64,000 bases of DNA, taken from the NCBI GenBank assembly GCA_035404085.1, contig DAONGL010000001.1:42195-106194 (forward strand), in the 5' to 3' direction. How positions within the stretch are numbered: the first letter of the stretch is position 1; each line of letters opens with the position of its first letter. This stretch comes from Methanomassiliicoccales archaeon. GTDB taxonomy: Archaea; Thermoplasmatota; Thermoplasmata; Methanomassiliicoccales; UBA472. The translations under genes and the position numbers were made by a program. The notes beneath the pieces were generated by a model. It did not search any database and was not told the origin of the DNA. It worked only from the letters and a program-made list of their open reading frames with translations. Shown in pieces: positions 7,759 to 10,757 of this stretch.

Positions 7759-8156
7759 GCCATCCGGTAGCGGCCGGGGCCGCACTCGTAAACGAAACCG
7801 GAGGATACCAGGCGTCGCAGTGCCTCCTCGGCGTTCATCCGGCCGTCCAAGGCCTTCTCGAGGTCGTCCAGATCGAAATCCTTTAGTTCCGTGGCCAGGT
7901 CCTCCAGGGAGGATGGCTTGAAGGGGGGCGTTCTCTTTTTCAATACCAGCTTCCCTTGGAAACCCTTCGGCTCCCGACCCTTGGTGTTCAGTTCAGCGAC
8001 CGCCTGGGCGGTCAGAGATGCAGAATTAGAAGTGAAATGGGTTTTCATCCGGCGGGTCTGCACCGTTCGGCCGCAGTGGGGGCAGGTGGAGGAGCGATGC
8101 TCCAGGTCCACCGCGAAGCCCTTCCGACAACGGGGGCAGACCACGGCTCCGAACAT
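7755..8156 (-). CDS. zinc-ribbon protein with C-terminal helical (winged-helix-like) domain
   Basis: The track ORF 7755..8288 overlaps pdaD. The start is trimmed to the internal ATG at 8156: MFGAVVCPRCRKGF...CPHCGRTV (CxxC...CxxC). The longer N-terminal extension is Arg/Pro/His-rich and unlikely to be real. Confidence 0.6.
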   Translation of the reverse strand: MFGAVVCPRCRKGFAVDLEHRSSTCPHCGRTVQTRRMKTHFTSNSASLTAQAVAELNTKGREPKGFQGKLVLKKRTPPFKPSSLEDLATELKDFDLDDLEKALDGRMNAEEALRRLVSSGFVYECGPGRYRMA

Positions 8157-8626
8157 CAGTATTCTACGAAGACCAGGGCGCCCAGGCAGGTTCCGTAATG
8201 GTCCATGGGTATGGACAGTTCCTCGATGGCGTAGTTGATGCGGAGGAGCTCGATGCCACGCAGGGCGGACATCTCGGTCATCTTCCACTCCAGAACTTCC
8301 TTCAAGGCCTTCTTGGTCCCGTGCATGTGGCCCTCGGCGACGTAGCCGCCCTTGCCATCCTTGCGCTGGGCGTAAGCTATCCCGGCAGAGATCATCTCGC
8401 CCTCGCCGCCCCTCATCTGGGCCAGGACGCAGTGGGTGATGGCGCCCATGGGCAGCTCCCTTGCGGCCACCTTCTTGGCGCCTATGGGAAGCACGGAGGA
8501 TACGGACACCAGGTTCTGCTCGCCGATCTTGGCTTTCATAAGCGCCTCATCGAAGGCGTTGAGGTCGGAGACCTTGCTCACGGCCGATCCCTGGGTGACG
8601 AAGAACTTCTTCGGGACTAGATTCAT
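8156..8626 (-). CDS. pdaD: pyruvoyl-dependent arginine decarboxylase
   Basis: 156 aa: MNLVPKKFFVTQGSA...NLVSVSSVLP, with the Ser-Ser self-cleavage site, then HCVLAQMRG...GYVAEGH, typical of PdaD. Confidence 0.9.
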   Translation of the reverse strand: MNLVPKKFFVTQGSAVSKVSDLNAFDEALMKAKIGEQNLVSVSSVLPIGAKKVAARELPMGAITHCVLAQMRGGEGEMISAGIAYAQRKDGKGGYVAEGHMHGTKKALKEVLEWKMTEMSALRGIELLRINYAIEELSIPMDHYGTCLGALVFVEY

Positions 8627-8666
8627 AATGTCGATGTAAAACAGAATGTTGATATAAGGTTTGCCT

Positions 8667-9617
8667 TCAGCCGATCTCCAAGACCCGCAGCTCGCGTTCC
8701 AGCATCTTGACGTCCTGGGGGTTTAGCGCTTCTGGCACGACCGGGATGATGAGCATGGAGCTGGTCGTGGACACATTGTCATTGAGCAGCTGCAGAAGTT
8801 TGAGCACCTTCAGGAAGTTGTTCTGGCTGATGAGATACTCCAAGCCTGAGAGCAGCACCACCGCCCGACTGTTCGCCTCGAAGAAGTTCTTGATCTCGCT
8901 GTATATCATGGGGATGTCGGTCGGTTCCCGGGCGTAGCGCTTTCCTCTTTCGTAGGAAAGCCACAGTAATGCCCCATCTCCGATGCCATACGTCTTCTGG
9001 ACCTTCTCCGGGTACTCGCGGGCAAGCACCATTCCAGTGCAGCCCTCCGCCACCTGGTCCTTGTACATCTGATACGCAGCGTCCAAGGACGACGACTCCA
9101 CCAGGTAGGACGTTCCTGGTTCCAGCAGGTACTTCCTTCCCGATTCGTCCTTGTTCAGAGCGACCCCCTTCTCCGTCGGATAGGTGGTAGATGGGGTGAG
9201 AACGTGAACGCACTTTACCGCCCCGTCGGATATGCAGGACGCCTCGTAAGCATCGTAACGACGGCGCATTAGCGAGGAGATTATTCCGGAGAGGTAACCG
9301 CGGGTGAAGTCGCAATGGTCCCCGTTATCCGCTTCCACCGACTCCTTGAAGGTGATGACGATCTCCGTCTCGTTGATCATCTCGATGTTCATCCGGGAAA
9401 GGCCGGTCTCCATCCATACCTGCTCGATGATGGCCTTGGCATCCTGGATGTCAGCGCATTCCAGCCCTAGCGTTCGGACCAGGCCCACCCCGGCCCGGAA
9501 GCCGTAGCGCTCCATCGTCCGTCCAGCATCGTTCCCGTTCAGTAGCTGAAGCTCCTCCCTGAGGTCTCCCAGGGCCGAACCCGGCATGACGAAAAAGGGC
9601 CGCATGTCCTTGCCCAC
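8667..9617 (-). CDS. V4R (4-vinyl reductase-like) domain fused to a DUF835 domain
   Basis: 316 aa. The N-terminal half has the V4R pattern (RYGFRAGVGLV...HCDFTRGYLSGIISSL...CISDGAVKCVHVL). The C-terminal half is DUF835-like (LLWLSYERG...VVLLSGLEYLISQNNF.KVLKLLQLLND...LIIPV). It starts at GTG 9617 or ATG 9605, 1-13 nt after the GTPase stop. Confidence 0.75.
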   Translation of the reverse strand: MGKDMRPFFVMPGSALGDLREELQLLNGNDAGRTMERYGFRAGVGLVRTLGLECADIQDAKAIIEQVWMETGLSRMNIEMINETEIVITFKESVEADNGDHCDFTRGYLSGIISSLMRRRYDAYEASCISDGAVKCVHVLTPSTTYPTEKGVALNKDESGRKYLLEPGTSYLVESSSLDAAYQMYKDQVAEGCTGMVLAREYPEKVQKTYGIGDGALLWLSYERGKRYAREPTDIPMIYSEIKNFFEANSRAVVLLSGLEYLISQNNFLKVLKLLQLLNDNVSTTSSMLIIPVVPEALNPQDVKMLERELRVLEIG

Positions 9618-9618
9618 G

Positions 9619-10134
9619 TCAAACCTCCATGGTAAGCTCGCCTAGGGCCTGGAAGGCTTCCTGGACGTTCTGTCCGGTCCTGGCGCTGGTCAGCATGAAT
9701 TTACAGCCAAGCTTGTCAGCGAAAGCCTTCAGGTCCTGAAGGTCTATCGTCATCTCCAGGTCGCATTTGTTTCCCAGTATCAGGATAGGTATCTTTCCGG
9801 ATACCTCGAACAGGTCGGCCGCCCAATTCTCAAGATGTTCTAGCGTTTCCGGCCGGGTCATGTCACAAACCAGCAACACGCCGTTGGCACCGAGATAATA
9901 GGTGTTATGCAACTCCTTCTTCGTCTTCTGGCCCAGCACGTCCCAGATCATGAGGGTGAGATTGACGTCCTCCAGCTCCAGGACCTTCTTGCTGACCTTG
10001 GCTCCGAAGGTCTGTATGTACTGATCATCAAATTGGTCCAATACATAACGTCGGATGAGACTGGTCTTACCGACCTCCCCGTCCCCTAGGAGGCAGATCT
10101 TCTTGACGAACTGGCGCTTAGCCATCCAGTCCAC
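9619..10134 (-). CDS. Ras-superfamily small GTPase (Rab/Ras-like)
   Basis: 171 aa with all G motifs: G1 GDGEVGKTS, G2 Thr in YIQTFG, G3 WDVLGQ, G4 GNKCDL, G5 TSARTGQNV. There is no C-terminal CaaX or Cys. Confidence 0.9.
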   Translation of the reverse strand: MDWMAKRQFVKKICLLGDGEVGKTSLIRRYVLDQFDDQYIQTFGAKVSKKVLELEDVNLTLMIWDVLGQKTKKELHNTYYLGANGVLLVCDMTRPETLEHLENWAADLFEVSGKIPILILGNKCDLEMTIDLQDLKAFADKLGCKFMLTSARTGQNVQEAFQALGELTMEV

Positions 10135-10205
10135 AGTATGCCGCCGGCGTCTATATATTCATTTCACTAGGTGGGGTTTCGACCTATCCAGTAACGACAC
10201 ACCGG

Positions 10206-10757
10206 ATGTCATTCGCCGCAATAGTAATGTATCTCGAGCCCAAATTACCCGGTATGCCCAAGACCGAGATGAGGTTCGAGGACGTGCTCGTGGACGACGT
10301 CTTCGACAAGTTCGTGCTGAAGCCTTCCCAGGTGGGGAAGGGCGCCACCATCGCCATGGTCATCGACCAGATGTTGGCCAATCCATTATCCCGCAAGGTC
10401 TACGTCACCGATGCCGAGAACAGGTATATCGGAACGGTGAGCACGGAGACGGTGCTCCGGTTGATGGGTTACCGACTGGGGGTGCGAGAGTACGGCGGCG
10501 CCTCGTTCATTCGTTTCCTTAAGGACACCCTCAAGGAAAGGGCGGATGACATAATGGTCAAGGGGCGTACCGTCACCAGGGAGACGAAGCTGACGGCGGC
10601 CATGAAGATAATGATCGACGATCATCTGAACGACCTGCCGGTGGTGGACAATGAAGGACGGCTGGTCGGAGAGCTGGCCAGCCTACAGCTGCTGATGGCC
10701 GGAAAGAAGGTTTTCGAGGCCAAGGACCCCGCCGTCCCCCCGGTCAACGAGTACTAG
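10206..10757 (+). CDS. CBS-domain pair protein
   Basis: 183 aa with two CBS-like repeats (KVYVTDAENRYIGTVSTETVLR, and IMVKGRTVTRETKLTAAMKIMIDDHLNDLPVVDNEGRLVGELA). Confidence 0.8.
   Translation: MSFAAIVMYLEPKLPGMPKTEMRFEDVLVDDVFDKFVLKPSQVGKGATIAMVIDQMLANPLSRKVYVTDAENRYIGTVSTETVLRLMGYRLGVREYGGASFIRFLKDTLKERADDIMVKGRTVTRETKLTAAMKIMIDDHLNDLPVVDNEGRLVGELASLQLLMAGKKVFEAKDPAVPPVNEY

Follow-up and report, generated by a model that had tools for sequence, protein, structure and literature searches.

Among the closest described systems to the gene pair reported here are MglA-MglB, the CvnA-D conservons and the Rup group 1 systems, in each of which a single-domain GTPase is encoded beside a dedicated partner that is not a GTPase (Wuichet and Sogaard-Andersen 2014, PMC4316618). 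Such pairs are kept over long evolutionary distances and are presumed to be signalling switches. The pair described here lies on a 64,000-nt stretch of DNA (the window, to whose positions all coordinates without a prefix refer) from a 1.41-Mb, 88.75% complete metagenome-assembled genome (MAG) of a Methanomassiliicoccales archaeon, designated G000 in coordinates. It consists of a gene for a Rab-like small GTPase and a gene for a V4R domain fused to a DUF835 domain, and it resembles the described systems in both respects. Compared to MglA-MglB, however, the partner is a V4R domain joined to an inactivated KaiC domain rather than a Roadblock/LC7 protein, and the GTPase is Rab-like with a eukaryote-type DxxGQ motif. 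Neither V4R nor KaiC is mentioned in the survey of Wuichet and Sogaard-Andersen (PMC4316618). Dedicated operon partners of prokaryotic small GTPases have been known as Roadblock-type proteins or multi-gene conservons, and the protein described here is of a different class. Across Thermoplasmatota the two genes are kept or lost jointly, and for that reason they very probably encode an uncharacterised signalling module. We consider it reasonably likely that this module is a dedicated GTPase-regulator complex, in which V4R would be the cognate part and the inactivated KaiC domain would link the complex to KaiC hubs.

Three further systems invite comparison. The Rab-like GTPases and Thor-TRAPPC3 of Asgard archaea share with the present pair an archaeal Rab-like core and a zinc-binding Bet3/V4R fold (Tran et al. 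2024, PMC10933270). In Asgard MK-D1, however, GTPase genes do not as a rule share operons with genes for Roadblock, longin or TRAPPC3 proteins (PMC10933270), whereas the pairing here is obligate and belongs to Thermoplasmatota. In the ArvA-ArvB-ArvC vesiculation operon of Haloferax, too, the small GTPase of an archaeon has operon partners that are conserved (Mills et al. 2024, PMC10927574). The importance of this system was shown experimentally (PMC10927574). ArvA is, however, Arf-like, with an N-terminal amphipathic helix and with DUF2073 and zinc-ribbon partners, none of which is found here. As for the partner protein, signalling proteins of the iKaiC/DUF835 type also carry an inactivated KaiC module behind input domains (REC-DUF835, REC-PAS-DUF835), but a V4R input and an obligatory GTPase neighbor are not mentioned in the available portion of that account (PMC5847659).

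The pairing was followed first within the order and then across the phylum. The V4R-DUF835 gene directly followed the GTPase gene in 30/30 of the best GTPase loci, which came from several Methanomassiliicoccales families. Approached from the partner side, a Rab-like GTPase adjoined in all 30 loci of the phylum sample that had a full-length partner match; these loci span families with partner identities of 28-40%, and the gene order is inverted in some with the adjacency retained. Among 185,579 species genomes scanned, 79 DUF835 loci were recovered, 45 with V4R and 34 without. The GTPase was present in 43 of the former, and in none of the DUF835-only loci; every V4R-DUF835 locus belonged to Thermoplasmatota. 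Nothing besides the pair was conserved around it in 14 diverse loci. Recurrence in nearly every locus examined places the pairing far beyond chance. The original prediction had allowed that the adjacency might be seen in no other genome; it proved to be phylum-wide.

The two genes also disappear together. Among 201 genomes of the order, the GTPase was found in 70 and the partner in 68, all 68 lying within the 70; no genome had the partner alone, and approximately 131 had neither. Both genes were missing from family f7 (0-1/114), from genera g13 and g19, and from genomes G043 and G099, the last two being 90-97% complete. One of the two GTPase-only genomes, G181, had a non-orthologous match, and the other, G109, had a truncated GTPase match and no match for the partner. 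A locus in a long-read Methanomassiliicoccales MAG (L126, CAVQBH010000015.1) carries a truncated GTPase (residues 4-128) and, at the same place, a partner split by frame breaks. Judged by the size of its contig and its location there, this is probably the site of the G109 match (G109:C15:~266 kb), and it may represent joint decay of the pair or indel or assembly errors of the long-read MAG.

A natural fusion was also found. The 527-aa protein P0326 (MAG GCA_030595765.1), encoded on one NCBI contig, carries a Ras domain (1e-17), a V4R-like region and DUF835 (5e-30) in that order; no close homologues of this fusion were found. We regard it as highly probable that the GTPase and V4R-DUF835 proteins work together at all.

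Both open reading frames were confirmed on the minus strand, and their junction accords with the earlier claim of co-translation (Table 1). The junction reads ATGGAGGTTTGAcGTG, in which the GTPase stop codon is followed by one spacer base and then by the GTG at 9617; this 1-nt gap falls within the 1-13 nt first estimated. An alternative ATG start lies at 9605. The GGAGGT sequence lies within the GTPase gene, 5 nt upstream of the GTG. This is a textbook layout for translational coupling, and the pair is read as a bicistronic, translationally coupled operon. The GTPase homologues are 168 aa long and begin with MAKRQF, and the TATA-like box AATATATA lies approximately 30 nt upstream of an ATG at 10125. 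The geometry of archaeal promoters is well established. The homologue start and the spacing of the box together indicate that the true start is probably this ATG, which would give a GTPase of 168 aa on a nearly leaderless transcript, with the box as the probable promoter of the two-gene operon.

Pfam profiles matched the GTPase as Ras (6.3e-40) and Roc (8e-29). In a PDB sequence search the top 60 matches were all Rabs, led by Rab1A (1.5e-30), and the Thorarchaeota Rab 7ezb matched at 1.2e-28. The AlphaFold2 model had a Ras fold, with a mean predicted local distance difference test score (pLDDT) of 88 and a predicted template modelling score (pTM) of 0.86, and Rabs again made up the whole of the top 50 Foldseek matches to it (Rab1b, Rab8, Rab11 and Rab5 among them), at template modelling scores of 0.8-0.85. 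The first strand of the model begins at residue 7, and the model has no N-terminal amphipathic helix. All of the GTPase motifs listed in the original prediction were present (Table 1), and both the motifs and the fold place this protein in the Ras superfamily. In alignments of 24 and of 47 phylum-wide relatives, G1 (GxxxVGKTS), the switch-I Thr/Ser, G3 (WDxLGQ, including the catalytic Gln), G4 (NKxD) and G5 (TSAK/R) were invariant or nearly so. Because these motifs are conserved together with the catalytic Gln, the GTPase should be an active switch, and we predict that it is catalytically competent.

How far this protein is a Rab is a separate matter. The five RabF motifs, reportedly described by Pereira-Leal and Seabra in 2000, are IGVDF, KLQIW, RFRSIT, YYRGA and LVYDIT. 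Aligned to Rab1A, the GTPase reads FGAKV, TLMIW, KTKKELH, YYLGA and LVCDMT at these sites; similarity extends to RabF2, RabF4 and RabF5 and in part to RabF1, and RabF3 is lacking. The C-terminus (...GELTMEV) has no Cys, as originally claimed for lipidation motifs in general, and no C-terminal Cys prenylation motif was found in the GTPase or its relatives. With the C-terminal cysteine and RabF3 missing, the protein is not a Rab in the strict sense, and the first rank of Rab1 is a measure of similarity, not of phylogeny. In published trees archaeal RasL fall outside the clade of Rabs, and the preprint of Vargova et al. reports no archaeal sequences specifically sister to Rabs. The original prediction had called Rab-like GTPases uncommon outside Asgard archaea. 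This was not the case in the order sampled, where the 70 genomes with the GTPase include nearly all members of 5 of the 7 families. NCBI already names these proteins "Rab family GTPase", and Surkont and Pereira-Leal (2016) had listed Rab-like proteins for a Thermoplasmatales archaeon and for Aciduliprofundum.

The partner is a V4R-DUF835 fusion, as the original prediction had proposed. Pfam matched DUF835 at 4.2e-26, over the cut-off, and V4R at 1.5e-5 with 25.4 bits, under the 31-bit cut-off; the V4R assignment was confirmed by the fold, by precomputed PF02830 matches of orthologues and by conserved V4R hallmarks. The AlphaFold2 model (pLDDT 81.7) shows two domains joined by a linker that is disordered at residues 145-160 (pLDDT <50). 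A PDB sequence search with the partner gave nothing even at E<=10, and its matches came from fold searches. For the V4R domain, the best Foldseek matches were the V4R sensor domains of DmpR, PoxR and MopR (1.5e-8 to 2.8e-6). These were followed by TRAPPC3/Bet3 chains from Naegleria, human, mouse, yeast TRAPPII and Drosophila (6e-6 to 1e-4), then by the Methanocaldococcus jannaschii V4R protein MJ1460, by H-NOX and by Thor-TRAPPC3 (7yh3). Both GxxxG pairs and the C102/C128/C136(/H138) cluster are kept across partner orthologues down to 28% identity. In PoxR and in Thor-TRAPPC3, zinc is held through four Cys (PMC10933270). V4R and Bet3 are homologous, with paired GxxxG motifs as a shared hallmark (Podar et al. 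2008, PMC2253512). The V4R domain is thus a prokaryotic homologue of Bet3/TRAPPC3, a subunit of the Rab1 guanine nucleotide exchange factor (GEF), and its Cys cluster resembles the zinc site of PoxR and Thor-TRAPPC3. With PoxR, MopR, DmpR and MsvR the present protein has in common the fold, dimer-type N-terminal helices and the Zn/Cys site. However, they are transcription factors (AAA+ sigma-54 activators or helix-turn-helix proteins), whereas this protein lacks any domain that would bind DNA or be active as an ATPase, and it is encoded with a GTPase.

Some partner subfamilies (L081-L084; P0326; L109:2965-3957) carry a C-terminal extension with a short hydrophobic or basic end (...GLSMFSKMLR, ...KKLFEFFGAR, ...EFFGGK) that is lacking in the protein of the window. 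This tail could be an amphipathic membrane- or partner-binding element.

The kinship with Bet3 raises the question of whether the pair is a true relative of TRAPP and Rab1, with V4R as a Bet3-like exchange-factor subunit and a GEF-Rab module that would predate eukaryotes and survive outside Asgard archaea. The TRAPP core (Bet3/TRAPPC3, Trs31, Trs33 and the longins Bet5/Trs23) is the GEF for Rab1/Ypt1 and Rab11, and in the present pair, too, a Bet3-superfamily fold goes with a GTPase, one that has Rab1 as its nearest solved relatives. The resemblance includes the GxxxG helix-packing motifs, of which both Bet3-type pairs are kept, and the fold matches include TRAPPC3/Bet3 chains from TRAPPII-Rab complexes and Thor-TRAPPC3. 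Rab1A/B head both the sequence and the structure matches of the GTPase, and extra V4R paralogues, present as stand-alone genes in many clusters, would permit a heterodimer of the Bet3/Trs33 kind. In contrast, V4R is nearer to the bacterial phenol sensors (~1e-8) than to Bet3 (~6e-6) and keeps their Zn/Cys site, and its fusion to a KaiC-like domain has no counterpart in TRAPP. The resemblance is at the level of fold: the TRAPP profile PF04051 matched neither the partner nor anything in the genome, in a search that had no prokaryotic positive control. The longin profile PF04099 had no match in the genome, though the same search matched nowhere in the controls, and no longin was linked to the pair; in TRAPP, the catalytic surface has longins at its core (PMC10933270). 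The rank of Rab1 and the absence of archaeal Rab sisters, discussed above, also argue against this descent. Taken together, these data make a TRAPP-Rab1 relationship improbable, and we are equally doubtful that the V4R-GTPase contact is homologous to the Bet3-Rab1 contact, which would make this an exchange-factor/Rab pair in non-Asgard archaea. If the contact were homologous, eukaryotic TRAPP would descend from a sensor-GTPase switch of this kind, which would here have kept its links to a small-molecule or redox sensor and to a KaiC network.

The cysteines suggest another scenario, in which oxidation or zinc loss at the V4R Cys3-His site gates the GTPase in these strict anaerobes, so that the module would be an MsvR-like redox or metal switch. 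The V4R cysteines of MsvR are redox-sensitive. In the partner alignments C102, C128 and C136 show little or no variation, and H138 is nearly invariant. The sole NCBIfam match of the partner is the V4R region of MsvR (1.6e-6), although at 28 bits it is far under the 220-bit cut-off. The four-Cys zinc sites of Thor-TRAPPC3 and PoxR (PMC10933270) are compatible with a metal switch. However, some or all of the cysteines are lacking in alignment rows L077 and L079 and in the fusion P0326, and the Cys site may be purely structural. We consider an MsvR-type switch rather unlikely. The "ligand-responsive switch" of the original prediction may be read from the V4R fold and the Cys/His site, but a redox or zinc switch is equally possible.

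The DUF835 domain matched ATPases of the RecA/KaiC type in Foldseek, namely FlaH (4yds, 1.6e-5), PH0284 (2dr3) and KaiC-RS (8fwj). No Walker A motif (GxxxxGK[ST]) was found in partner residues 160-316, and the conserved residues of the domain were G258-x-E260-Y261 and Q276. As judged from the sequence and model, DUF835 is a KaiC/RecA-like fold without the nucleotide-binding loop. This agrees with Galperin et al. 2018 (PMC5847659), who list DUF835 under the name iKaiC, for a KaiC domain that has been inactivated, and report it behind REC and PAS domains; the available portion of that paper cites Makarova et al. 2017 (mBio 8:e01959-17) for the definition.

Our data indicate which of the two partner domains the GTPase follows. 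The genome of the window has 9 DUF835 genes and one Ras-type gene, and the latter adjoins the single V4R-DUF835 gene of the genome. Furthermore, many clusters of non-methanogen Thermoplasmata carry an extra stand-alone V4R gene, and in two of these clusters a second GTPase gene lies directly ahead of it. Both lines of evidence imply that the GTPase follows V4R and not DUF835. The second GTPases (L071:4539-5105 and L072:4239-4805, both in four-gene clusters) have His for the catalytic Gln (WDITGH), and they may be slow or partner-dependent hydrolases. The eight further DUF835 genes of the genome include C25:3689-4636 (-), C11:16861-18030 (-), C16:7824-8831 (+), three on C19, and C5:15923-17542 (+). 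They encode REC-DUF835, DUF835 anchored in the membrane by multiple spans (seven-transmembrane, 7TM) and several proteins with unrecognised N-terminal parts; none lies beside a GTPase gene.

Only two V4R-DUF835 loci were without a GTPase, L109:2142-3957 (JACRNV010000039.1) and L110:1559-3954 (JBFMEL010000127.1). Each is divergent beside a KaiC ATPase gene (Pfam 1e-43 and 1e-64, respectively), with more KaiC-like genes near. These neighbors give a weak hint that the inactivated KaiC domain docks on live KaiC proteins. The genome of the window itself has 13 matches to PF06745, the profile of KaiC-like ATPases.

In the regulator complex that we favor, the operon would yield the Rab-like GTPase and its dedicated partner in matching amounts, and the two would form a complex. 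V4R would bind and regulate the GTPase as a ligand-gated or redox/zinc-gated exchange factor, as a GAP (GTPase-activating protein) or as a lock resembling a guanine nucleotide dissociation inhibitor (GDI). An exchange-factor role like that of TRAPP is possible. The inactivated KaiC domain would serve oligomerisation or docking on KaiC-type ATPases, which are thought to be archaeal signalling hubs. A chemical signal read by V4R would in this manner pass to the GTP/GDP state and from there to a KaiC network.

Alternatively, the partner could be a downstream effector or adaptor. The GTP-bound GTPase would then bind V4R-DUF835 and switch the contact of the inactivated KaiC domain with KaiC ATPases, and the cavity and Cys site of V4R would serve as structure or as a further input. 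Conserved linkage and the fusion fit an effector equally well, and the GTPase, which supplies the catalytic Gln itself, does not depend on a residue in trans. DUF835 is, moreover, a common output module behind REC, 7TM and PAS inputs, and in this genome it is joined to REC, 7TM and other input domains; the GTPase could therefore be one more input. On the other hand, the operon partners of prokaryotic GTPases characterised so far (MglB and the conservon proteins CvnB/D) are regulators (PMC4316618), and V4R holds the position that sensor domains occupy in DUF835 proteins. An effector role is in our view a tentative possibility.

The GTPase might instead belong to a known system, either as ArvA or as an MglA served by a distant Roadblock GAP, with V4R-DUF835 merely co-transcribed. 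ArvA homologues are widespread in Euryarchaeota (PMC10927574). A Roadblock/LC7 gene is also present: the original prediction that none accompanies the GTPase was correct for the neighborhood, but one such gene, G000:C64:399-767 (-), is encoded elsewhere, unlinked to the pair. Its product is a 122-aa protein (Pfam 1e-6), and the gene, which has no GTPase next to it, lies on a contig of 1.5 kb. Roadblock genes occur in 79/201 genomes of the order, at distances of hundreds of kb from the pair in complete relatives. No Roadblock gene was found at any of the pair loci examined, and it outlasts the pair where the latter was lost, in g13 (4/4), g19 (5/6), G043 and G099. We rejected an MglA identity on the Ras-type G3 (WDxLGQ) and the lack of an adjacent Roadblock gene. 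ArvA was likewise rejected. The ArvB/OapB profile PF09846 had no match in the genome, although the positive control matched in Haloferax volcanii, the N-terminal amphipathic helix is missing, and the downstream gene encodes V4R-DUF835, where the Arv operon has ArvB (DUF2073/OapB) and ArvC (DUF2072). The original prediction would have been refuted by a place in a well-characterised prokaryotic family with a known partner; the GTPase did not fall into MglA or ArvA. Co-transcription alone also leaves unexplained the joint loss, the inverted order with adjacency and the fusion. These results largely refute a known system, which we consider highly improbable.

Several points weigh against the dedicated regulator complex. 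The genomes of one order are kin, so that the co-occurrence counts overstate the number of independent events. The GTPase-V4R-DUF835 fusion is a singleton in one MAG, and the clue from KaiC neighbors comes from two related MAGs. The genome's Roadblock protein could act in trans as the real GAP. How the two partner domains are placed relative to each other is uncertain, given a pTM of 0.52 for the single-chain model. Sequence cannot separate a regulator from an effector, nor a GEF from a GAP or a GDI-like lock. The data show the domain identities, the intact GTPase motifs, the signals for coupling, the adjacency across the phylum, the shared presence and loss, and one natural fusion. From these we infer the physical binding and its effect on the nucleotide state, as well as which domain touches the GTPase, which way the signal runs, and what the signal and the output are. 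Finally, Makarova et al. 2017, which lies outside our literature coverage, may already list the GTPase-V4R-DUF835 neighborhood; a GTPase with a V4R-DUF835 partner is undescribed in Wuichet 2014, Surkont 2016, Podar 2008, Galperin 2018, Tran 2024 and Mills 2024 and in the Vargova and ParA/V4R preprints.

The pair gives an archaeal Rab-like GTPase a concrete cognate partner that can be tested, something hard to obtain in Asgard archaea since the gene neighbors there are mostly uninformative (PMC10933270). It also joins three themes that have been discussed separately, namely Ras-like switches, V4R/Bet3 ancestry and KaiC hubs. If the partner is a GEF, it would bear directly on the origin of TRAPP-Rab signalling. 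If it is not, it would still define a new route by which inputs reach signal transduction in archaea, here in methanogens from gut, wetlands and digesters.

Table 1. Coordinates of the GTPase and V4R-DUF835 genes and of their features in the window.
Feature	Position	Strand	Basis or remark
TATA-like box AATATATA	10152..10159	(-)	Sequence reading; in the 71-nt spacer between the divergent genes
Rab-like small GTPase, 171 aa from GTG 10134	9619..10134	(-)	Pfam, PDB search, AlphaFold2, Foldseek
GTPase G1, GDGEVGKT	10063-10086	(-)	Motif reading
GTPase G3, DVLGQ (WDVLGQ)	9928-9942	(-)	Motif reading
GTPase G4, NKCD	9760-9771	(-)	Motif reading
GTPase G5, SAR (within TSARTGQNV)	9679-9687	(-)	Motif reading
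GTPase stop, TGA	9619-9621	(-)	Sequence reading
Shine-Dalgarno sequence of partner gene, GGAGGT	9623..9628	(-)	In the last GTPase codons; read in ATGGAGGTTTGAcGTG
V4R-iKaiC partner, 316 aa	8667..9617	(-)	GTG 9617, stop 8667-8669; Pfam and AlphaFold2 model
V4R domain, ~aa 7-143	9189..9599	(-)	Foldseek, alignments, NCBIfam
V4R GxxxG pairs	G39/G43, G107/G111	(-)	Orthologue alignments
V4R Cys3-His cluster	C102 9312-9314, C128 9234-9236, C136 9210-9212, H138 9204-9206	(-)	Alignments
Linker, aa 144-162	9132..9188	(-)	Low pLDDT; length-variable in two alignments
DUF835 / inactivated KaiC-like domain, aa 165-316	8670..9125	(-)	Pfam, Foldseek
TATA-like CTTATATC	8651..8658	(-)	Sequence reading; in the 40-nt spacer ahead of the next gene

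The gene following the pair, at 8156-8626 (-), encodes a pyruvoyl-dependent arginine decarboxylase (PvlArgDC, 1.2e-40). The TATA-like CTTATATC ahead of it suggests that the GTPase pair is a separate bicistronic unit. On the other flank, a divergent gene at 10206-10757 (+) encodes a CBS-domain protein and shares the 71-nt, TATATA-containing spacer with the pair. A role for either neighbor was rejected, as neither is kept with the pair in distant loci. PADLOC had no match for either protein of the pair, and there is thus no sign of a defence system.

Outside the window, the same genome encodes an isoleucyl-tRNA synthetase of 1386 aa with a C-terminal DUF835 (7e-34) at G000:C2:58254-62414 (+). 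Its other parts are tRNA-synt_1 (3.6e-126), Anticodon_1, DUF5915, two helix-hairpin-helix modules and a CxxC...CxxC ribbon. Open frames of 1386-1465 aa that end in DUF835 occur in at least 9 relatives of the order. The joining of an essential translation enzyme to a signalling module is unusual.

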